A stretch of DNA of 9,136 nt from a virus. Its lineage: Duplodnaviria; Heunggongvirae; Uroviricota; Caudoviricetes. Shown piece by piece: positions 1 to 9,136 of the stretch. The stretch covers positions 1-9,136 of IMG/VR virus record IMGVR_UViG_2713896770_000016; one strand, given 5' to 3'. Numbering within the stretch: the first letter of the stretch is position 1; each line of letters begins with the position of its first letter. The notes beneath the pieces were generated by a model. The model was not told the DNA's origin. It saw only the letters and a list, made by a program, of their open reading frames with translations, and ran no database searches. Position numbers and translations under genes: made by a program.

Positions 1-2138
1 TCATCGGTCATAATGGCAGACTGCGCTTCACGTGATTGCTTCAGCCACCATTTAATGGTGTCACGATCAATGACTCCGCCAGCAGTTTCCAGATCGATAG
101 TCTTACTAAATTCCGGTCCCATATCTCCGGTTTGCGGATCGAAAAATATTGCACCTATTGAGATAATCGGGGCATCAGGATTTTTTCCCATGGTTTCAAG
201 GTCGATCATTAGATGGTCACACGTCCTGCTGGTGGATGTGATAACACGATGACCGTTCACCGTAATTAAGGGATCTGCCGTCTCGCCAGTTTCACTATCG
301 CTGGCGTGATCCTGAGCGCTGCCAGCATTCTCCTTGTGTGGATGTTCAGCGCCTTCCATTTTCTCCGAATCGTCTTCCTGAACTTCAACCTGGTTCTTGT
401 CATCGAATGTTTCCTGGTATGTTGCGTCGCCCATCACCGCACCACAATCAGGGCAGTTGCCACCGCCGGTCTGACCGCAGGCGGTGCAGACTTTTTCCAC
501 TTCCTGTTGCGCCACTGGTTCAGGCTGTTTCGTTTCTGGCTCGTTTTGTAACGCATTTGGGCTGTTTTGTTCCGCTTTCTGGTCGTTCTGTTCCGTTTCT
601 TGCTGGTTCTGGTTCACAGAATCGCGGGTTTCAATCCCCTTCACCCATTTCGGATCATTCGGGTCGCTAATCCCTGCAACAAATTCACCACGTGATGCGG
701 CGAGCAACTGATTGGCGTCAGGCTGGCTGATATTGGCTGCCTGCATAATTTTGTTTACTTCGTCAGCGGTAACTTTTACCGGTTCTGGCTGTGCGGTCGT
801 GTCAGATGCACCAGTATTTTGTTGTGAACCTGAGTATGTACTGTTTTTGCGGGCGAAATATTCTTCTTTCGTGATTTCAGTAGCCCCGGCAGCCAGCGCC
901 TTATCCAGACCAGAAAGTTTGTTTGCGCGACCGTATTTTTCGCCATCCTTGTCGGTGAAGAGGAAGTAGAACGGCCCCTCACGCTCTACAGATGGTTCGA
1001 CTTCCACTTTGCATTCGGTTTTTTCGTTGTCCGGAATTGCCGTTTCCACTGCATCAGTTTCTGGTACTGGCGACGAGAGAGTATCAGTTGCGCTCTGATT
1101 TGTTCCTTCATCTTCAAACACGCCCTTTGTAGTCAGGTATTCAGTAATGTATTTGTTCAGTGCCACAGGATCTTTGTGAATGTCGATCGGACGTTCACGG
1201 ACAAGGCCAAAAATAGTCTGGCGGTCGTAGCGAAGGGCATCAGGCTGTTTGCGCATCGATGCCGAGATACGCTTCCAGTCTTCGCGGTCGTTGTCGATAA
1301 CTTCATTTTTTGCCCAGCGATGGATGCTGCCGTCAATGTTTCCGGCATCCACATCACCAGGCCAGAGAGCGTAGGCCAGTTCGTCATCCAGTGTTTTCCA
1401 TGTCTGCTTATATTCGCGACGAATGACTGCAGTGACAGGGGGGATTTTTTCTGCTGAGTTTTCAGTGTGCTGTCGGTGGACTCTGGCGCGGGCGAGATCA
1501 ACAACAGACGTGTATTTTCCGGTTTCCTTGCGTTCACCTTCGCGACGTTTTTTCCAGATGCGCATTTCTGCCTGAATTTCGGGCCATTTGGCACCAGGCT
1601 TACATTTATGCTTAACCCACCCGATGGCATGCAGCTTAAGCTCCGGATACATGGCGTTAACTTCTGGCATTTTCATCAACGCTTCAACGATATGTCCGTC
1701 GAATGTTGCCATGTCTTCCTGCAACAATTCCTGCGCGCTAATCACCATATCAACGGTGATGTTTTCACATGTGTCGAACTTAACCATGACAGCGTTCTGT
1801 ACTTCAAGGGACAGTTTGTCAAAATTGACGTTCATCGGTTCGGATTCTGGTTCGACCGGAATAAAGGAAGCGGATTCCTCATCCCAGCGGTTTTCCTGCA
1901 TATATTCGGTATCCCAGGAGTCGATAGCAGGGCGGGGCATGCCGGGTTTATCCTCGCAGATAAGAAATTTATAAGCGCAGTCCTGAGCAGCCGGATATTG
2001 CTCCAGGAATTGCCAGGTAAATTTGGCACGGGCGCGGCGTTCGTCGCCAGCTTCAATGGCAGTGGCTACAGCAACTGCACCTTCTTCCTTTATTGCCTGT
2101 TCGTCCGGAATGGCGGCGCAAATAAAGACTTTACTCAT
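1..2138 (-). CDS. recE: RecE-like exodeoxyribonuclease VIII family protein, N-terminal ~712 codons; 3' end runs off the left edge of the window
   Basis: Minus-strand frame opens at ATG 2138-2136 (MSKVFICAAIPDE...) and stayed open in the stretches hand-checked (1-300, 1440-1500, 2100-2138). It is absent from the ORF track, consistent with having no in-window stop. The plus strand over the same span holds only short, mutually tiling shadow ORFs. GAGG lies about 10 nt upstream of the ATG. An internal segment ...LLAASRGEFVAGISDPNDPKWVKGIETRD... resembles what I recall of Rac RecE. No search was run. Confidence 0.7.
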   Translation of the reverse strand, partial: MSKVFICAAIPDEQAIKEEGAVAVATAIEAGDERRARAKFTWQFLEQYPAAQDCAYKFLICEDKPGMPRPAIDSWDTEYMQENRWDEESASFIPVEPESEPMNVNFDKLSLEVQNAVMVKFDTCENITVDMVISAQELLQEDMATFDGHIVEALMKMPEVNAMYPELKLHAIGWVKHKCKPGAKWPEIQAEMRIWKKRREGERKETGKYTSVVDLARARVHRQHTENSAEKIPPVTAVIRREYKQTWKTLDDELAYALWPGDVDAGNIDGSIHRWAKNEVIDNDREDWKRISASMRKQPDALRYDRQTIFGLVRERPIDIHKDPVALNKYITEYLTTKGVFEDEGTNQSATDTLSSPVPETDAVETAIPDNEKTECKVEVEPSVEREGPFYFLFTDKDGEKYGRANKLSGLDKALAAGATEITKEEYFARKNSTYSGSQQNTGASDTTAQPEPVKVTADEVNKIMQAANISQPDANQLLAASRGEFVAGISDPNDPKWVKGIETRDSVNQNQQETEQNDQKAEQNSPNALQNEPETKQPEPVAQQEVEKVCTACGQTGGGNCPDCGAVMGDATYQETFDDKNQVEVQEDDSEKMEGAEHPHKENAGSAQDHASDSETGETADPLITVNGHRVITSTSRTCDHLMIDLETMGKNPDAPIISIGAIFFDPQTGDMGPEFSKTIDLETAGGVIDRDTIKWWLKQSREAQSAIMTD

Positions 2139-2261
2139 TTTGTTTTAACCTCATGACAGATTTAAGGATGAACAAATCCCTGCCATTGCTGGCATATAAG
2201 AATCAAATCTGATGTATTCATTAAGCTGAATGTCGTATTGTGGCAGTTATTTTATTACTGC

Positions 2262-2483
2262 TCACCATGACTCTGCTTTTACAGGTAAACCATCACGACC
2301 AAGGAAGACTTTAATCATGGTTTCCTTAATACAGTGTTGTGTGGAAAAATCACGAATATAGAGCCGTTGTTTTTTAATGTTGTTTACCGAAGCAATATAT
2401 GTTCTTCCTTTATGAATAACATAATCACCGGGAGTCACGCACTGACGAGGAATCTCATCAGTTCCGAAGTGATGAGCAATCAT
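2262..2483 (-). CDS. kilR: KilR-like small protein (73 aa), putative cell-division inhibitor
   Basis: Track ORF 2262..2495 (77 aa). The internal ATG at 2483 is preferred because GGAG sits 6 nt upstream of it, whereas the 2495 ATG has no SD. The product [22 protein letters not shown]... is 73 aa, the length of Rac KilR, and lies immediately upstream of recE-like in the same orientation. The name rests on recalled similarity, not alignment. Confidence 0.5.
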
Positions 2484-2657
2484 AATTATCTCCATTTTTA
2501 CAAATGAACTTTGTTGATGCGGTGCCTGGTGCCTCCAGGTGACGTTAACCAGTTAACAATTAACGCCGGATACAGAGAACCCACCCATAACACTGTTTTT
2601 GGTTTTAACTGTTCCGCGTGCGCTCAGCCGCATTCACCGCATCACAAAACTCACTTT

Positions 2658-2715
2658 AAAAAGGGCGGCAGACCAGTCACGGAGTAAAACTGATACCGCC
2701 AAACGTCACCAGAAA
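2658..2715 (-). ncRNA. dicF: DicF-type sRNA (prophage-encoded, ftsZ-targeting family)
   Basis: Minus strand reads TTTCTGGTGACGTTTGGCGGTATCAGTTTTACTCCGTGACTGGTCTGCCGCCC followed by TTTTT. This matches the 53-nt E. coli DicF RNA as I recall it, apart from about 1 nt. It has a GC-rich 3' stem plus U-tail and occupies the same operon position as in Qin (after the ydfC-like gene, about 175 bp before the next gene). Confidence 0.7.
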
Positions 2716-3056
2716 ATTGATAACAGAGGGCGTTGCAGCGGGGTTGTCACTTAAGCGTATGGTCAACCTGACAACCCGGTGTCCTCAACGGGGGAAGGAA
2801 TAACCCCGCCATACTTACCGCCGCGCCATTTCGCGGATTGCCACAACCGGAAGCGCACGGTCGACGAAAATTTAACGACAGGCTATCTATGAACCAGCTA
2901 CCTCGCCGTGCGCTTTCGCGTTATGGTCTGACTTTTCAGGGAAATATCCTTTCAGTAAACTGTCAGTGCCGGATGCTCACCCGTGTCCGGCGCAAGCACT
3001 CCACCTCACCCGTGGAGAACTCCTTAATTACCAACCTTAGCTTCGTTGGTTAGCTA

Positions 3057-3275
3057 TTAACGCGGGTATGTAATCATTCTGGCAATGGTTAATGCCGCTG
3101 CTTTTTCCAGATTGGTGATATCCTGCTCCAGAGAGGACAGATTTTCAGCCTGCTTAGCCCTGACTTCATTAGCCCATTTCAGATCCTGCGCTGCATTAAT
3201 TTTCTGGTGCATCCACTCATAAAGTTCATCATTGGTATAGTCTGGCGCGATGATGACGGGTTCTCGTTTCTGCAT
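3057..3275 (-). CDS. YdfC-like small prophage protein (72 aa), function unknown
   Basis: Track ORF of 72 aa with GAGG 5 nt upstream of the ATG at 3275. Its size and position (third small gene after the repressor, before dicF) match ydfC of the Qin dicB operon. The sequence looks coiled-coil-like. Identity is inferred from context and length only. Confidence 0.5.
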   Translation of the reverse strand: MQKREPVIIAPDYTNDELYEWMHQKINAAQDLKWANEVRAKQAENLSSLEQDITNLEKAAALTIARMITYPR

Positions 3276-3304
3276 ACTGATTCCTCGCGGTGCTGTTTCG
3301 CTTA

Positions 3305-3433
3305 TCAGCCATTAGATTTTGCCGAACTGGAAAGCACCTGTTTAAATTCGTTGAAGCTGTGAGCTTCTTCGCCTTCGGCAAGGCCTTCGAAGTATTCTTC
3401 GTAAGCCTTTTCCATGATTGTGTCGAAATCCAT
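3305..3433 (-). CDS. YdfB/YdaG-like small prophage protein (42 aa)
   Basis: Hand-translated MDFDTIMEKAYEEYFEGLAEGEEAHSFNEFKQVLSSSAKSNG, with stop TGA at 3307-3305. The ATG at 3433 lies 1 nt after the stop of the upstream gene, suggesting translational coupling. The 42-aa acidic product matches the ydfB/ydaG family in size. The overlapping 69-aa track ORF 3229..3438 in another frame was rejected. Confidence 0.6.
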   Translation of the reverse strand: MDFDTIMEKAYEEYFEGLAEGEEAHSFNEFKQVLSSSAKSNG

Positions 3434-3434
3434 A

Positions 3435-3590
3435 TCACCCACCTGAATTTCTTTCCAGCCAGCGACGCGCTCCAGATTCGGTTTTAAACGTTTTGCTTTT
3501 GGTATACGTCATTGCGGTGAACGTACCGTACTGGTTGGGGAACACGCCACATACCAGAGATTCGCTGTTGCCAAGATCGATAGTATCCAT
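3435..3590 (-). CDS. YdfA/YdaF-like small prophage protein (51 aa)
   Basis: Part of track ORF 3435..3671. The internal ATG at 3590 has GAGG 5 nt upstream and gives MDTIDLGNSESLVCGVFPNQYGTFTAMTYTKSKTFKTESGARRWLERNSGG (51 aa, the size of YdfA/YdaF). A 78-aa version starting at 3671 is an alternative, also with a GAGG upstream. Confidence 0.6.
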   Translation of the reverse strand: MDTIDLGNSESLVCGVFPNQYGTFTAMTYTKSKTFKTESGARRWLERNSGG

Positions 3591-3775
3591 GCTGACCTCA
3601 TTTCCCCTTAACGCCGGGGTAGCGGAACAAAAACCTGCTGCATAGTTATTAAAGTTGAACCCTGCCGTCATGTTCTTACGCCTCGGGCTGGCTACTTAAC
3701 CCCTGACCACTGCCTGGTAACTCGAAGTATTGCCCTGCATTCTGTGGGGCGGGGTGGGTTGGTATGAAAAGAAGG

Positions 3776-3814
3776 ATACCCATAGGTATTTAAAAAGTAA
3801 ATACCCATGGGTAA
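3776..3814. promoter_or_regulatory. Operator pair downstream of the repressor gene (OL-like), probable control region of the leftward early operon
   Basis: Two 14-bp dyads: ATACC-CATA-GGTAT (3776-3789) and ATACC-CATG-GGTAA (3801-3814), centres 25 bp apart. The second contains the perfect 12-bp palindrome TACCCATGGGTA. They share the half-site with the operators at 4295-4347. Confidence 0.5.
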
Positions 3815-3855
3815 ATTTTTGCGGTGTCTTAACTGGTGACTAGTTGTTTGGTGAG

Positions 3856-4275
3856 CTATGATGCGTTTTGTGCTTTCTTTTTACGGATTTCTTCGTAGAT
3901 CATATTGTAATACTGTTTTTTCTCTTCAAGAGTTTTTAATAATTTATCCGCTTCACTTTCTGGCAGTTCGTCTAAGAGATCTAAAAAAATACGTTGTCGT
4001 GGCGTTAGAACCCTTGTTTCATAACTGGAGGCTGTGTTCGTTGATGATGAAACGATACCATCCATCCATCCCCGGGGTAACCCAAAGGACTCTTCGATAA
4101 TCTCCACCATATCATCAGCGATCCGTTTTTTTCCCTTTTTCCCCTCTGGGTACAACATTCTTGATACATAAGAAGGCTCGCGCCCGATCTTTCTGGCCAC
4201 GTTAACCGCTTTACCATCGCATTTCTCATCACGAATTTTGATGAGTTGCTGTCGTCTAAATTCATATTTGTCCAT
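3856..4275 (-). CDS. Prophage repressor, DicA/RacR-like HTH protein (139 aa)
   Basis: Track ORF. The N-terminal region has an HTH-like segment GKAVNVARKIGREPSYVSRML. The C-terminal LTPRQRIFLDLLDELPESEADKLL resembles the DicA C-terminus as recalled. It is divergent from a cro-like gene and flanked by palindromic operators. No SD precedes the ATG, so the mRNA may be leaderless. Confidence 0.8.
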   Translation of the reverse strand: MDKYEFRRQQLIKIRDEKCDGKAVNVARKIGREPSYVSRMLYPEGKKGKKRIADDMVEIIEESFGLPRGWMDGIVSSSTNTASSYETRVLTPRQRIFLDLLDELPESEADKLLKTLEEKKQYYNMIYEEIRKKKAQNAS

Positions 4276-4350
4276 AGGTAAATAATAGATGCGATTACCG
4301 CAAGGTAAACAACCTGTGGGTATTGACTTTTGTTTACCTGTGGGTATTCT
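4268..4350. promoter_or_regulatory. Divergent promoter/operator region (OR-like) between the repressor and cro-like genes
   Basis: Operators TTACC-GCAA-GGTAA (4295-4308), cAACC-TGTG-GGTAT (4310-4323) and TTACC-TGTG-GGTAT (4334-4347), plus a degenerate copy over the repressor start (4268-4281). Rightward promoter candidate: -35 TTGACT 4323-4328, 16-bp spacer, -10 TATTCT 4345-4350. Leftward candidate: -35 TTTACC (complement of 4304-4309), 16-bp spacer, -10 TATTAT (complement of 4282-4287), ending about 6 nt before the repressor ATG. Confidence 0.5.
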
Positions 4351-4375
4351 TTGCTGTGTTTACTAAGGAGTAGCT

Positions 4376-4657
4376 ATGGAAGAATTAAGAATATTTCTCA
4401 ATTCTCTTTCGTCAGATGAACAGCGTATGTTTGCATGCGAGTGTGGTACCAGCATCGGTTATCTAAGAAAGGCATTGAGTAAAGGTCAAGTGTTAGGGGC
4501 ATCGTTATGTGTCCTTATTGAGCGAGCCAGTAATGGTGAAGTTACACGTCAGCAACTAAGGCCTTTTGATTGGATGAATATTTGGCCCGAGCTGGAAGAT
4601 ACCAAAACGTTAACACAACCACTTTCTAGGAGCTTGATTCATGAAAATCAAGCATGA
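4376..4657 (+). CDS. Cro-like regulator, YdaS family (93 aa)
   Basis: Track ORF with AAGGAG 5 nt upstream of the ATG. HTH-like segment CGTSIGYLRKALSKGQ...ASLCVLIERASNGEVT. It is the first gene of the rightward operon, divergent from the repressor. Confidence 0.8.
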   Translation: MEELRIFLNSLSSDEQRMFACECGTSIGYLRKALSKGQVLGASLCVLIERASNGEVTRQQLRPFDWMNIWPELEDTKTLTQPLSRSLIHENQA

Positions 4658-5066
4658 ACACATCCGCATGGCGATGAATGCCTGGGCGCGTCCTGATGGC
4701 GAAAAAGTTCCAGCAGCTGGAATAACCCAGGCTTATTTTGAGTTGGGTATGACGTTCCCAGAACTGTATGACGACAGCCATCCGGAAGCCCTGGCTCGCA
4801 ATACCCAGAAAATTTTCCGCTGGGTAGAGAAAGACACCCCTGATGCTGTTGAAAAAATGCAGGCTCTGTTACCGGCGATCGAAAAGGCGATGCCGCCTTT
4901 GCTGGTGGCCCGTATGCGCAGCCACAGTTCTGAATATTACCGTGAGATCGTCGAACGGAGGGATCGGCTGGTGAAGGATGTCGATGATTTTGTTGCGTCA
5001 GCGGTTGTTTTGTATGACCAGATGAATCGCGGCGGCCCGGCAGGGAATGCTGTGGTGATGCACTAA
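4641..5066 (+). CDS. YdaT-family protein (141 aa), CII-like position
   Basis: Track ORF with AGGAG 8 nt upstream. It starts MKIKHEHI like Rac YdaT as recalled and is about the same length. It overlaps the preceding gene by 17 nt. Confidence 0.8.
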   Translation: MKIKHEHIRMAMNAWARPDGEKVPAAGITQAYFELGMTFPELYDDSHPEALARNTQKIFRWVEKDTPDAVEKMQALLPAIEKAMPPLLVARMRSHSSEYYREIVERRDRLVKDVDDFVASAVVLYDQMNRGGPAGNAVVMH

Positions 5067-5088
5067 AAGCACGGTGTTCGGGGGTTTT

Positions 5089-6051
5089 ATGAGCAGCAAG
5101 CTTCATGGTCTTGTCTGGGAAGGGTGCGCCTTCACCGGCATGATCTTATCCAGGGTGGCGGTTATGGCCCGTCTTGCAGACTACAGCAATGACGAGGGCG
5201 TGTCATGGCCTGCCATTGAAACTATCCGGCGTCAGATCGGTGCAAGAAGTGAATCCACAGTGAAATCGGCTATTGCAGAACTGGCGAAAGAGGGCTGGCT
5301 GACGAAGGAAGAGCGTAAGGTCGGTGGGCGTAATGTAAGCAATATCTATCGGCTTAATGTGGAAAAACTCGAAGCAGCTGCGGCGGCGGCGCGTGAGTCA
5401 TATAAACCGAAAAGAAAAATTAGCCCGGCAAAAAATGACCCGTTAACAGTTGACCCGTCAAATATTGACCCCTCAACGGTTGACCCGTCAAATTTTGATG
5501 GATCAACTGTTGATAAAAAACTGCCGATTAGGGGGGCGATGATTGACCCCGATCCGTCAGTATTAAAACCTGATCCGTCAGATAAAAGATCTTCTTGTCC
5601 GGACGCTTCGCAACCGGACCCGCAGACGGCTGAACAGGATTTTTTAACCCGACACCCTGACGCGGTTGTGTTCAGTGCGAAAAAACGCCAGTGGGGAAGT
5701 CAGGAAGATTTGGTGTGCGCACAGTGGATCTGGGGACGAATCGTGAGTCTTTACGAGCAGGCGGCCAGCTATGATGGCGAGATCACTAGACCGAAAGAAC
5801 CCAACTGGACAGCATGGGCCAATGACGTTCGCACAATGCGGATGCTGGATGGCAGAACTCACAGACAAATTTGTGAAATGTTTGGGCGTCTCCAGCGGGA
5901 TTCGTTCTGGGTAAAAAACATCATGAGTCCGGCAAAACTCCGGGAAAAATGGGATGAACTGGTTATCCGCCTGGGGCGTTCGCCTGCGCAGCGTTGCGTG
6001 AATCACATTTCTGAACCGGACACTGAAATACCGCCGGGATTCAGGGGGTGA
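5089..6051 (+). CDS. Phage replication initiation protein (O-like): N-terminal winged-helix DNA-binding domain, repeat linker, DnaT-like C-terminal region
   Basis: Track ORF 5074..6051, which starts at a GTG. I prefer the in-frame ATG at 5089, preceded by a G-run, though the start is uncertain by 5 codons. The N-terminus LSRVAVMARLADYSNDEGVSWPAIETIRRQIGARSESTVKSAIAELAKEGWL is typical of phage replication-protein HTH domains. It sits directly upstream of a DnaC-like gene and carries an iteron array inside the coding sequence. Confidence 0.85.
   Translation: MSSKLHGLVWEGCAFTGMILSRVAVMARLADYSNDEGVSWPAIETIRRQIGARSESTVKSAIAELAKEGWLTKEERKVGGRNVSNIYRLNVEKLEAAAAAARESYKPKRKISPAKNDPLTVDPSNIDPSTVDPSNFDGSTVDKKLPIRGAMIDPDPSVLKPDPSDKRSSCPDASQPDPQTAEQDFLTRHPDAVVFSAKKRQWGSQEDLVCAQWIWGRIVSLYEQAASYDGEITRPKEPNWTAWANDVRTMRMLDGRTHRQICEMFGRLQRDSFWVKNIMSPAKLREKWDELVIRLGRSPAQRCVNHISEPDTEIPPGFRG
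5435..5524 (+). repeat. Iteron array (about six tandem 15-bp repeats, TTGACCCGTCAAAT-like) inside the initiator gene; putative replication origin
   Basis: Direct repeats at about 5435, 5450, 5465, 5480, 5495 and 5510, each with an internal dyad TTGAC-cc-GTCAA, followed by an A-rich tract (5513-5520). Two further related copies (GATCCGTCAG) lie at 5551-5560 and 5572-5581. In the protein they encode a DPSxx pentapeptide-repeat linker. Confidence 0.6.
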
Positions 6052-6057
6052 CGTGTC

Positions 6058-6804
6058 ATGAAAAACATTGCGGCAGTTGGGGTTCTTGAACGTATTCGCA
6101 GACTTGCACCACAGGGGTCGGTTCCACCGTACCGGACGGTGGAGGAGTGGCGGGAATGGCAACTTGCTGAAGGACGAAAACGCAGCGAGGAGATTAACCG
6201 CCAGAATCGCCAGTTGCGGGTGGAAAAAATCCTGAATCGTTCGGGCATCCAGCCTCTGCACAGCAAATGCTCGTTTGCAAATTATCAGGTGCAGAACGAC
6301 GGGCAAAAATACGCGCTGAGCCAGGCCAAATCCATAGCTGACGAACTGATGACCGGGTGCACGAATTTTGTGTTCAGTGGTAAAACCGGCACCGGGAAAA
6401 ATCACCTTGCAGCGGCGATGGGCAACCGGCTGATGGTGAAGGGGCGCAGCGTGATTATCGTCACCGTGTCTGACGTCATGAGCGTGTTGCATGACAGCTA
6501 CGACAACGGCAAATCCGGGGAAAAATTTTTACAGGAGCTTTGCGGGGTTGATTTGCTGGTCCTGGATGAAATAGGCGTTCAGCGGGAGACGAAAAACGAG
6601 CAGGTGGTATTGCACCAGATAATTGATCGCCGGACAGCATCACTGTGCAGTGTCGGGATGTTAACAAACCTGAATCATGCCGCAATGAGTACGCTTCTTG
6701 GTGAGAGGATTATGGACCGCATGACCATGAACGGTGGTCGATGGGTGACGTTTAACTGGGATAGCTGGCGTCCAAATGTCAGCAATATGAGGGTTGTGAA
6801 GTAA
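6058..6804 (+). CDS. DnaC-like helicase loader (IstB-type AAA+ ATPase), YdaV-like (248 aa)
   Basis: Track ORF with AGGGGG about 9 nt upstream. Walker A motif FSGKTGTGKNHLAAA and Walker B motif LLVLDEIG. Same length as Rac YdaV as recalled. Confidence 0.9.
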   Translation: MKNIAAVGVLERIRRLAPQGSVPPYRTVEEWREWQLAEGRKRSEEINRQNRQLRVEKILNRSGIQPLHSKCSFANYQVQNDGQKYALSQAKSIADELMTGCTNFVFSGKTGTGKNHLAAAMGNRLMVKGRSVIIVTVSDVMSVLHDSYDNGKSGEKFLQELCGVDLLVLDEIGVQRETKNEQVVLHQIIDRRTASLCSVGMLTNLNHAAMSTLLGERIMDRMTMNGGRWVTFNWDSWRPNVSNMRVVK

Positions 6805-6825
6805 TTTTGTCCGGAGGAAATTTTA

Positions 6826-7596
6826 ATGGAAACCGTATCTGACGCACTGAAAGCACTGAAAAAAGCCTCTTCACATGTGGTGGCAGCTCGCCTTGGAATC
6901 AGTCGTGAAGAGGCTGTCAACGAGCTGTGGGAACTCAAAAGAAAAGGCGTCGTTGATAAAACTGGTCACACCTGGTTTCTGGCTGGCGAAGGTGAATCCC
7001 GGGTAACCGAAGAGCGGCCAGTAAAATCTGAAGCACAGGATATGCTGACCGGGGAGGTCGAACAAAAAGTTACCGCAGACATGATGATTGAGTTTATCGG
7101 TCAGGATGGGGCTAAAACGTGTGAGGAACTGGCGGGTAAGTTCGGTGTCAGTACTCGCAAGGTTGCTTCCACGCTGGCGGTGGTAACCGCAACGGGGCGG
7201 CTGGCACGCGTTAATCAGAACGGTAAATTTCGTTACTGCATGCCGGGCGATAATTTACCAGCAGAGCCGAAAGCCGCGCTGGTAACGGAAAGTGATGGTA
7301 AGGCCTTTCCTCAGCCAGCAGGTGCTGCGTTACCAGTCCGGGAAGCCGCAACACAGGAAGAAATTAAAACAGAAACTGTGGCGGACATTGTGCAGCCGTT
7401 GCCATCGTTTACCGAAACGCAAGCAGATGAGCTGATTTTTCCGTCCCTTCGCAGGGCAAACCTGGCGCTGCGCAGGGCGAAAAGTGATGTTCAGAAGTGG
7501 GAGCGAGTCTGCGCCGCGCTGCGGGAGCTGAACAAGCACCGGGATATTGTTCGACAGATTACTGATTCTTCCCGCCGTGTTGTATCGGAAAAGTGA
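6826..7596 (+). CDS. Hypothetical protein (256 aa) with two winged-helix-like modules
   Basis: Track ORF with GGAGG 8 nt upstream. Internally duplicated 50-60 aa segments (residues about 1-55 and 83-140) of the pattern hydrophobic-x-x-L-x-x-x-G-[IV]-S-x-x-x-[VA]. The C-terminal third is basic and helical. No family was recognised with certainty. Confidence 0.7.
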   Translation: METVSDALKALKKASSHVVAARLGISREEAVNELWELKRKGVVDKTGHTWFLAGEGESRVTEERPVKSEAQDMLTGEVEQKVTADMMIEFIGQDGAKTCEELAGKFGVSTRKVASTLAVVTATGRLARVNQNGKFRYCMPGDNLPAEPKAALVTESDGKAFPQPAGAALPVREAATQEEIKTETVADIVQPLPSFTETQADELIFPSLRRANLALRRAKSDVQKWERVCAALRELNKHRDIVRQITDSSRRVVSEK

Positions 7597-7611
7597 TTGC
7601 CGGAGGCGCTT

Positions 7612-8037
7612 ATGGCAAAAGTATTTACACAAGAAGAGCGGGAAAAAATTAAAGGGCAGGTTGTTGAACTTGTACGTCTGAGCGGTCGCGAGACGTTGCG
7701 GCAACTGGAAGCCAAGACAGGTGCGACAAGATATCTGATGAGTGTTCTCGCCAGAGAGCTGGTTGCCAGTGGCGATGTATACAACTCTGGTTACGGGTTA
7801 TTCCCGTCTGAACAGGCGCGTAAGGACTGGCAAAATGCTCGCAAAAAACTCTCAAGGGCAAAGGTGAAGAAACCTGCAGTGGTTGATCCGGACCTTATCT
7901 GGTCGTTACCAGACGGCGAAATACGCCGCTACGACAGGCGCCTGAATATAATCTGTCGCGAGTGCCGGAAGAGCGAAGCTATGCAGCGTGTACTGGCATT
8001 TTATCAAGGAAATGTTAGGTATTTTAGACGTTACTAG
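7612..8037 (+). CDS. Hypothetical protein (141 aa), N-terminal winged-helix-like module, C-terminal basic region
   Basis: Track ORF 7597..8037 begins at a TTG. I prefer the ATG at 7612, which has GGAGG 5 nt upstream. It starts 16 nt after the stop of the previous gene. The N-terminus resembles the modules of the preceding protein. Confidence 0.7.
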   Translation: MAKVFTQEEREKIKGQVVELVRLSGRETLRQLEAKTGATRYLMSVLARELVASGDVYNSGYGLFPSEQARKDWQNARKKLSRAKVKKPAVVDPDLIWSLPDGEIRRYDRRLNIICRECRKSEAMQRVLAFYQGNVRYFRRY

Positions 8038-8190
8038 ATTAAAGAGCATTAGTTCAGATGTGAATTGACATTTTCATGGCGCAGGGTAGAGCCAGCGTGG
8101 TTGTCCGCTTTGCGTCAAAACCAGATATTACCAGATTTAGACATATATTCCCGATAGCCCTGCTCTGATGCTACACTCTGTGCTATTTTC

Positions 8191-8877
8191 ATGACCCCAA
8201 TAAAAATATTTATGACTATTGCTGATTTCAAACGGCCTAAATTGGAGCTCCCAAACGGGGCAAACAAACTACTACTGCACTCTTGCTGTGCTCCATGTTC
8301 CGGTGAAGTGATGGAGGCGCTTCAGGCCTCGGGAATCGACTACACCATCTTTTTCTACAACCCGAACATTCATCCTCAGAAAGAGTATTTAATTCGTAAG
8401 GATGAAAATATTCGCTTTGCTGAACAACACGGCGTGCCGTTTATCGATGCTGATTACGACACCGACAACTGGTTTGAACGTGCCAAAGGAATGGAATGGG
8501 AGCCTGAGAGGGGGATCCGTTGTACCATGTGTTTTGACATGCGTTTTGAGCGGACAGCGTTGTACGCTGCTGAAAATGGTTTCAGTGTGATCAGCAGTTC
8601 ACTGGGCATTTCACGCTGGAAAAATATGCAGCAGGTTAACGAGTGTGGGCGGCGAGCTGTTGCGCATTATCCGGGTATGGTGTACTGGGATTATAACTGG
8701 CGCAAGCAGGGCGGCTCGTCCCGTATGATTGAAATCAGCAAGCGCGAAAAATTCTATCAGCAGGAATATTGTGGCTGTGTGTATTCTCTGCGCGATACCA
8801 ATCTACACCGCAAATCTCAGGGACGCCCTCTTATCAAAATTGGCCAACTCCACTACGGAAAAGAAGAGAAGGAGTGA
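8191..8877 (+). CDS. QueH-like (DUF208-type) putative Fe-S protein, possible epoxyqueuosine reductase homologue (228 aa)
   Basis: Track ORF. N-terminal [12 protein letters not shown] followed by FFYNPNIHP, and later RCTMC and EYCGCVYS cysteine motifs. I recognise this pattern as DUF208/QueH, not confirmed by search. It follows a 153-bp intergenic region with extended -10-like TGcTACACT (8169-8177) and TGcTATTTT (8181-8189). No SD precedes the ATG. Confidence 0.75.
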
Positions 8878-9136
8878 TTTTATGGATCACCTTTCTGATT
8901 GATTTCATATTGGCGAGGTGACGTGAGTTAAGTAGAATGGCTGCGGGTGCTTGAGGCTATCTGTCTCAGGCATGAACACTGAAAGGCAGATAGAGAAAAG
9001 CCCCAGTTAACATTTCGCGTCCTGCAAGACGCTTAACATTAATCTGAGGCCCAATCTATGTCTCACAAATGTAGGTTAGCCTCTTACGTGCCGAAAGGCA
9101 AGGGGAAGCAGGCTATTGTTAACACCAAGCTGTAAT

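Follow-up and report, generated by a model that had tools for sequence, protein, structure and literature searches.

We analyzed a window of 9,136 nucleotides (positions 1 to 9,136 of virus record IMGVR_UViG_2713896770_000016), which is the early region of a lambdoid Escherichia coli prophage of the Rac/CP-933P kind. It contains an O-like replication initiator gene that carries an array of short repeats, and the segment from the start of this array to 5595 is probably the replication origin of the prophage, located inside its own initiator gene. The open reading frame (ORF) of the initiator begins with a GTG at 5074 (325 amino acids [aa]), while RefSeq starts the 100%-identical copy at the ATG at 5089, giving a protein of 320 aa (Table 1). 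The protein matches phrog_391, "replication initiation O-like" (E = 2e−115 over aa 6 to 325 of the 325-aa ORF). Pfam assigns an HTH_36 domain (27.8 bits, cutoff 25) to aa 30 to 76 of the 325-aa ORF, which are aa 25 to 71 of the 320-aa protein, and the only other Pfam match is a weak one to DnaD_N.

A first-pass annotation of this DNA had placed about six tandem 15-bp repeats with internal dyad symmetry, together with two related downstream copies, inside an initiator gene, and this description held in all its parts. Tandem Repeats Finder reported a period of 15 at 5424 to 5498 (5.0 copies, 71% matches) and a period of 30 at 5424 to 5513 (3.0 copies, 80% matches); a 2.5-copy call scores 101. 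A second repeat search also gave a spacing of 15 bp and located the downstream pair, CCCGATCCGTCAG at 5548 to 5560 and CCTGATCCGTCAG at 5569 to 5581. Half-sites resembling TTGAC and GTCAA alternate every 7 to 8 bp through the array, and because of this 7/8-bp rhythm palindromes are found both within units and across unit junctions; the entire array is a 33-nt inverted repeat. The motif TGAYSSRTCA has 4 matches in the window versus 0.17 expected, a count reached by none of 200 shuffles, and TTGACCCGTCAA with at most 2 mismatches has 7 matches versus 0.88 expected (0/200 shuffles reach 7). All seven of the latter fall in 5435 to 5506, and elsewhere in the window the motif is absent; across 19 kb of a 100%-identical prophage it is likewise confined to the array. 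Neither the window nor these 19 kb contain a second array that might be the real origin. The repeats translate as NDPLT VDPSN IDPST VDPSN FDGST VD..., followed by IDPDPSV and KPDPSD, which is the DPSxx peptide that had been proposed. All of them sit within aa 116 to 165, and the array proper makes up aa 116 to 145.

The repeats had also been described as a linker between a helix-turn-helix domain and a C-terminal domain, and the domain limits obtained with AlphaFold2 and BLASTP agree with this. In an AlphaFold2 prediction built on a 26-sequence alignment, aa 1 to 105 have predicted local distance difference test (pLDDT) values of 82 to 94 and a helix-helix-helix-helix-strand-strand-helix topology. 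The closest solved folds to this N-terminal domain (N-domain) are winged helices of the ArsR/SmtB, MarR, PadR, and GntR type, families whose members commonly bind DNA as dimers. For aa 113 to 186, pLDDT is below 50 and secondary structure is absent. The C-terminal domain (C-domain), aa 182 to 300, aligns over 119 aa with aa 171 to 277 of lambda O at 39% identity (E = 5e−26); this homology makes the gene a genuine relative of lambda O. The last 21 residues (300 to 320) match the C terminus of host DnaT (2ru8, 6aep, and 9zbt; E = 0.01 to 0.03 in phmmer). The very end of the initiator, ...SEPDTEIPPGFRG, is near-identical to the extreme C terminus of DnaT, and a DnaC-like gene comes next, the same order as in the host dnaT-dnaC operon. 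In most related loci with a DnaT-like tail, no DnaC-like gene was seen within 2.5 kb downstream; therefore, the tail may address host DnaC.

Comparison of homologues at the DNA level was based on genome loci because a first protein search gave mostly truncated entries. A set of 80 Enterobacterales genome loci with a homologous N-domain, together with phage and E. coli relatives, was reduced to 64 non-redundant genes. Anchoring was possible for 63 of them, whose N-domains are 50 to 75% identical. Codon entropy was measured only in columns with a conserved amino acid. Over 54 such columns of the N-domain its normalized mean is 0.84, whereas over 16 columns of the linker it is 0.20 (Mann-Whitney P = 6e−9). 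Conserved linker serines are encoded by TCA in 56/56, 62/62, 59/60, and 53/53 homologues, aspartates by GAT in 63/63 and 57/57, a valine by GTA in 56/57, and a lysine by AAA in 52/52. Within the repeat units, serine is TCA 296 times and TCG 23 times but never TCC or TCT, although all four TCN codons are used elsewhere in the same genes; the picking of units left out AGY serine codons, a bias from which the aligned-column entropy data are free.

The amino acids themselves change where the DNA does not. The first codons of the units in the window encode N, V, I, V, and F yet all end in T (AAT, GTT, ATT, GTT, and TTT), and this third-position T belongs to the word TTGAC; it is kept in 36/40 units of the subtype to which the window belongs (subtype A, defined below). 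The site is present in both orientations in all eight arrays of this subtype: TTGACCCCTCAA encodes Asp-Pro or Asn-Pro in 21/23 units, and its reverse complement, TTGAGGGGTCAA, encodes Glu-Gly or Asp-Gly in 12/14 units. The retention of the DNA word while the peptide changes, together with the frozen synonymous sites, shows that selection acts on the DNA of the repeats. The proposal that DNA-level and protein-level constraints are superimposed here was thus borne out, since synonymous sites are frozen in the linker and saturated in the N-domain. No overlapping ORF of at least 40 aa that might explain the frozen synonymous sites was found in another frame over 5435 to 5583. Because the sites lie in coding sequence, the linker is fixed as a (V/I)DPS(N/T) pentapeptide repeat. 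The frame in use, xxT GAC CCG TCA Axx, gives Asp-Pro-Ser, and one other frame reads a TGA stop; the choice of reading frame appears to make the site and a flexible linker mutually compatible.

Beyond the array, the family has a strongly conserved distal block consisting of site 1 (TTTGACCCGTCAGAATCTGG), site 2 (GGGGATCCGTCAGTAAA), and site 3 (TGATCCATCAGATAAAA). Array units carry GAC, while distal sites 2 and 3 carry an invariant GATC, with the GAT codon fixed in 63/63 homologues at site 2 and in 57/57 at site 3. In the window, GATC occurs four times in 5501 to 5591 (5501, 5551, 5572, and 5588). Clustering of GATC was rejected as a signal, the window-wide count being 32 versus 34.6 expected; what is notable is only the family conservation of two of the sites. 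Two phages with the same module (L006 and L007) carry a Dam-type methylase gene directly downstream of the replication genes. The invariant GATC and the nearby Dam-type methylase are a hint that methylation or SeqA may control the origin.

The A-rich tract that had been reported to follow the repeats was recovered in part. There is an A6 run at 5514 to 5519 and ATAAAAGA at 5582 to 5589, which fall short of the 40-bp tract of lambda. The least stable 30-bp stretch near the array starts at 5560 and reaches only the top 3.7% of the window; no strong AT-rich unwinding element was found in the gene, and the lowest stability in the window is reached in intergenic DNA. Across the family, mean AT content has its maximum (0.63 to 0.70 over ∼45 bp) at sites 2 and 3 and the A-run that follows them, with GC-rich flanks. 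We infer from this composition that 5556 to 5595 is a candidate unwinding region.

Every homologue has 4 to 10 in-frame 15-bp units, an A-run, and the conserved distal three-site block, and the minor E. coli alleles seen lack exactly one 15-bp unit. An Edwardsiella locus (L012, 2816 to 2965) has an expanded array with a higher-order period, in which a 45-bp block is repeated that comprises two forward units and a flipped one. In a Providencia locus (L058), a 75-bp block is repeated, and many units read TCTGTC or TCTGTT instead of TCTGAC. The sequence of the units differs with that of the N-domain. Subtype A, with the N terminus MSSKLHGLVWEG..., has the consensus [A/G]TTGA[C/G]SSSTCAA[A/C][T/G] (short form ATTGACCCCTCAAAT). 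Subtype B, with the N terminus MSTKLTGYVWD..., has TCTGAC[G/C/A]C[G/A]TCAAAA (short form TCTGACGCRTCAAAA) and the peptide SDxSK. A third subtype, C, has CACCCNCCAGAATCTGG-like units and was recognized by eye at 3 loci. Subtype B is spread across the Enterobacterales and includes the same cassette in SfII, SfIV, phiP27, phiNP, YeP1-3, and Klebsiella prophage-derived phages. These phages share with the window an N-domain and linker that are ∼44 to 56% identical, 15-bp in-frame units, and distal GATCCGTCAG sites; they differ in having TCTGACGCRTCAAAA rather than ATTGACCCCTCAAAT as the unit and often Phg_2220_C as the C-domain. At a threshold of 60% identity or more, no isolated phage of the window's own subtype was found in the searched collection.

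In subtypes A and B alike, the C-domain may be lambda-O-like or Phg_2220_C, and a GFRG tail may be present or absent. All four combinations of C-domain and tail occur in both subtypes, and in every case the repeats stay with the N-domain. C-terminal types were assigned by motif classification and by Pfam scans of example proteins; single-linkage BLAST clustering of the C-domains was dropped, as it merged everything. Unrelated N-domains are accompanied by other repeats. In the mEp460 O gene (L005, 1332 to 1461), five GGTCAAAATG-type repeats lie at 23- to 24-bp spacing in the equivalent linker position, and in Rac ydaU (L002, gene 4120 to 4977), CAGATGTTCAA/TGTTCAAACA direct and inverted repeats lie at 4472 to 4578 with 33-bp and 12-bp spacings. 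The two arrays are candidate origins, the latter a candidate for Rac oriJ. The DNA of the window is 86% identical to the mEp460 O gene from nt 5584 onward. Matches to other phages set in precisely at nt 5551 or 5584, which lie in or immediately behind the distal sites. The first-pass annotation had suggested comparing the repeat sequence with the N-domain across related initiators. The outcome of that comparison, a consensus that differs by subtype and other repeats beside unrelated N-domains, indicates, together with the exchange of C-terminal modules, that N-domain and repeats are inherited as one cassette.

The placement of an origin within the initiator gene has been known in principle from lambda since the late 1970s. 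The lambda origin consists of four iterons and an AT-rich tract in gene O, on which the O-some is assembled, and lambdoid phages, lambda, phi80, 82, and P22 among them, have type-specific iterons inside O. The annotated lambda iterons span nt 349 to 433 of O (aa 117 to 145), and the array studied here spans nt 347 to 436 of its gene; by this measure, the two positions are equivalent. In both phages, repeated dyad-symmetric sites occupy the stretch of the initiator gene that joins the N-domain to the C-domain, encode the interdomain linker, and stand directly upstream of the homologous C-domain, and the gene order is repressor, cro-like, cII-like, initiator, and loader. The sites themselves are built differently. 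Lambda has four 18-bp sites whose starts are 20 to 24 bp apart, whereas the window has 12-bp cores with a 15-bp period in both orientations, a second class of sites with an invariant GATC, a much weaker AT-rich tract, and an initiator with an extra DnaT-like tail.

Taken together, the O-like gene, the lambda-matching position, the linker, the DNA-level selection, and the linkage to the N-domain support the lambda-like arrangement that the first-pass annotation had named. The repeats are very probably initiator-binding sites of a lambda-style origin, and we infer origin function for the segment from the same comparisons. Under this model, the N-terminal winged helix would bind the TTGAC/GTCAA half-sites of the six units and the two or three GATCCGTCAG sites downstream, and binding would assemble an O-some-like nucleoprotein complex. 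The complex would strain and open the adjoining moderately AT-rich, GATC-bearing stretch (∼5556 to 5595). The lambda-O-like C-domain and the DnaT-like tail would then recruit the neighboring DnaC-like loader, which would bring host DnaB. Rightward transcription from the immunity region would cross the array, as in lambda.

Several observations weigh against an origin of this kind. The N-domain is HTH_36 here and Phage_rep_O (PF04492, E = 6e−36) in lambda O, and the loader is of the DnaC/IstB type here and of the P type in lambda. A 15-bp period leaves little space for a lambda-style dimer on each unit. The best unwinding candidate is ∼40 bp at ∼62 to 70% AT, and the lambda tract is visibly richer. 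Many copies are in prophages that may be defective. The co-inheritance of N-domain and repeats may partly reflect their physical adjacency, which alone favors co-inheritance; the cassette evidence is therefore supportive and not conclusive. Finally, the strand from 5425 to 5600 folds better than shuffled sequence (z = −4.1).

The last point raises the possibility that the conserved feature is a set of mRNA or single-stranded DNA hairpins acting in translation, in mRNA stability, or as a single-strand initiation or priming signal. In its favor, the folding of 8 homologous loci also gave negative z-scores, from −2.3 to −6.6. Arrays of palindromic half-sites yield low z-scores by construction, however, and the eight separate fold predictions differ, with no common helix evident among these individual folds (no consensus fold or covariation count was made). 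Moreover, the number of units (4 to 10) and their orientation vary, which suits duplex binding sites rather than one fold, and the region matches no Rfam family. We regard a structural role as very unlikely. Even less credible is the idea that the repeats are a low-complexity, slippage-prone peptide linker whose DNA similarity comes from recent duplication and has no function at the DNA level. The linker is indeed predicted to be disordered, it changes length by whole units, and flexible linkers typically contain Asp, Pro, Ser, and Lys. However, its synonymous positions are near-invariant across genera in which N-domain sites are saturated, the amino acid of the first codon varies while the third-position T is kept, and flipped units keep the DNA word while the peptide goes from Asp-Pro to Glu-Gly. 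As far as codon comparison can decide, a purely peptide-level repeat is refuted.

More serious is the proposal that the array is bound by the initiator or by a different prophage protein but has a role other than initiation. It might serve in autoregulation, as a roadblock to transcription of the early operon, in handcuffing for copy-number control, or as a packaging or centromere-like signal. The DNA-level selection and the linkage to the winged helix identify a protein-binding array and not what binding achieves, and an origin would be expected to have an AT-rich element, which here is weak. Against this stand the position of the array, which is the same as that of the lambda iterons and upstream of a homologous C-domain, and the lack of any other array in the window or the 19 kb of prophage. 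Unrelated initiator types also bear their own repeats at the equivalent place, and 6 to 13 sites inside an initiator gene are the classic layout of a phage origin, as in lambda, P22, and SPP1. We therefore consider a non-origin role unlikely and prefer the origin.

Other known systems resemble this locus to different degrees. The initiator-bound site clusters inside the genes for the replisome organizers of SPP1 (gene 38) and TP901-1 have the same layout but no sequence homology to the window. Iteron plasmids of the RepA/pi type likewise have an initiator that binds clustered repeats, but these plasmid iterons are direct repeats of ∼17 to 22 bp phased at about two helical turns, with no sequence homology to the window; the 15-bp period and the two orientations rule out a plasmid-type iteron origin. 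DnaA boxes (TTATCCACA, one mismatch allowed) were rejected as a component: 5 matches versus 2.0 expected, reached by 14/200 shuffles, are not significant, and none is exact. Two DnaA-box-like matches lie near the array (5358 and 5508), and the amino acids at 5358 differ in subtype B, as judged by eye. The Rac module ydaS-ydaT-ydaU-ydaV (oriJ) shares with the window the order of YdaS-like, YdaT-like, initiator, and DnaC-like loader genes, and YdaU has the same ...IPPGFRG tail as the window protein and also bears repeats in its linker. YdaU differs in its DUF1376 N-domain and CAGATGTTCAA/TGTTCAAACA repeats, in place of HTH_36 and TTGACCCGTCAA units. According to PMC3945230, the oriJ of Rac is an active origin, and PMC11014345 cites plasmids that carry oriJ; given the shared gene order, this speaks for an origin in the window as well. 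The Shiga toxin (Stx) phages 933W and P27 have six iterons in O, and iteron number varies among lambdoid phages and lengthens O (PMC7466680); the extra iterons of Stx phage origins matter for plasmid establishment (PMC7466680). Those phages have lambda-type O and iterons, and the N-domain and site sequence of the window are unrelated to them. Full-text searches for the site and searches for SfIV-type iterons found no paper on this origin or its site sequence, and a study of CP-933P calls the gene only an "o homolog" and does not describe an origin.

The genes around the initiator are those of a lambdoid early region (Table 1). The loader, the presumed partner of the initiator, matches Pfam IstB_IS21 (E = 7e−19), NCBIfam PRK12377 (506 bits), DnaC PRK07952 (299 bits), and PHROG 50, and it is followed by DUF1627, DUF977, and QueH genes. 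The last of these, at 8191 to 8877 (+), encodes a QueH-type epoxyqueuosine reductase (Pfam E = 1e−65) within the prophage early-gene block. A pR-like promoter candidate upstream of the cro-like/cII-like/O-like/DnaC-like operon has 9/12 consensus matches, and such sites are no commoner than expected by chance; transcription from it would run through the array. No internal promoter or terminator was found at 5300 to 5700. Rfam places the DicF antisense RNA at 2663 to 2714 (−, 74 bits) and the sok antitoxin RNA of a hok/sok locus at 8945 to 9117 (+, 116 bits). A 21-bp tandem repeat at 525 to 611 (4.1 copies, 70% matches, consensus CTGTTCCGCTTTCTGCTCGTT) has no gene over it by ORF and Pfam checks.

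Table 1. Positions of the initiator gene, its putative origin elements, and neighboring features in the window
Feature	Position	Strand	Sequence or basis
Repressor gene, 139 aa, DicA-like	3856-4275	−	
pR-like promoter candidate upstream of the operon	4323..4350	+	Consensus scan only
YdaS/cro-like gene	4376-4657		
YdaT/cII-like gene	4641-5066		
O-like replication initiator gene, 320 aa	5089..6051	+	ORF list, RefSeq, PHROG 391, Pfam HTH_36
N-terminal winged-helix DNA-binding domain, aa 1-105, presumed iteron reader	5089..5403	+	AlphaFold2, HTH_36
Disordered linker coding sequence, aa 113-186, holds all repeats	5425..5646	+	AlphaFold2
Tandem array of six 15-bp units (five good, one degenerate)	5435..5524	.	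Core TTGAC-CC-GTCAA
Array unit	5435		ATGACCCGTTAA
Array units	5450 and 5480		TTGACCCGTCAA (both)
Array unit	5465		TTGACCCCTCAA
Array unit, flipped orientation	5495		TTGATGGATCAA
Array unit, degenerate	5510		TTGAT, then A6
Distal composite site TTGACCCC-GATCCGTCAG	5543..5560	.	Family sites 1 and 2 fused (TTGACCCCGATCCGTCAG); GATC at 5551
Local AT-rich stretch over site 3, candidate unwinding region	5556..5595	.	GC 0.35; GATC at 5572 and 5588
Distal site 3	5569..5581	.	CCTGATCCGTCAG; GATC at 5572
C-domain homologous to the lambda O C-domain, aa 182-300	5632..5988	+	BLASTP
DnaT-like C-terminal tail, ...NHISEPDTEIPPGFRG	5986..6048	+	phmmer versus PDB chains
DnaC-like helicase loader gene, presumed initiator partner	6058..6804	+	Pfam, NCBIfam, PHROG

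Strain FDAARGOS_536 has an identical initiator gene in a prophage beside potC, with no annotation other than "helix-turn-helix domain-containing protein." Between these otherwise identical prophages, the immunity region differs, which lies on the left side of the conserved block from the cII-like gene to the initiator: the window has the DicA-like repressor (3856 to 4275, −), and FDAARGOS_536 has a RelE/RelB pair and another regulator (L001, 7308 to 8171), which places a mosaic boundary near the replication module. At least 80% of the initiator gene is present in 1,514 of 5,426 complete E. coli genomes, and at least 80% of a 261-bp stretch around the array (5380 to 5640) is present in 1,517 of them. 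The array-bearing genomes include O157:H7, O111, O145, and ST131 strains.

A more far-reaching reading would join several of these observations, and we offer it tentatively, as a whole rather doubtful. Instead of a series of discrete iterons, the array would form one unbroken lattice in which inverted 5-bp half-sites (TTGAC/GTCAA, 7 to 8 bp apart) alternate, and on this lattice the initiator could pair in two registers and polymerize into a filament. The GATC sites would place firing under Dam/SeqA control, possibly via a phage Dam-type methylase. The DNA-binding domain and the origin would form a portable cassette carried on at least two unrelated recruitment domains, and the host dnaT-dnaC pair may be descended from a phage initiator-loader module.

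The arrangement described here has long been known, and this probable origin is a further instance of it and not a new kind of element; the textbook picture is unchanged. It is a clean quantitative case of overlapping codes, in which a protein-binding array dictates the peptide of a disordered linker. It also gives a reason to read the annotation "helix-turn-helix domain-containing protein" as an initiator. A located origin would provide a basis for constructing mini-replicons and for predicting replication incompatibility between prophages, as well as a handle for asking whether these abundant prophages still replicate.

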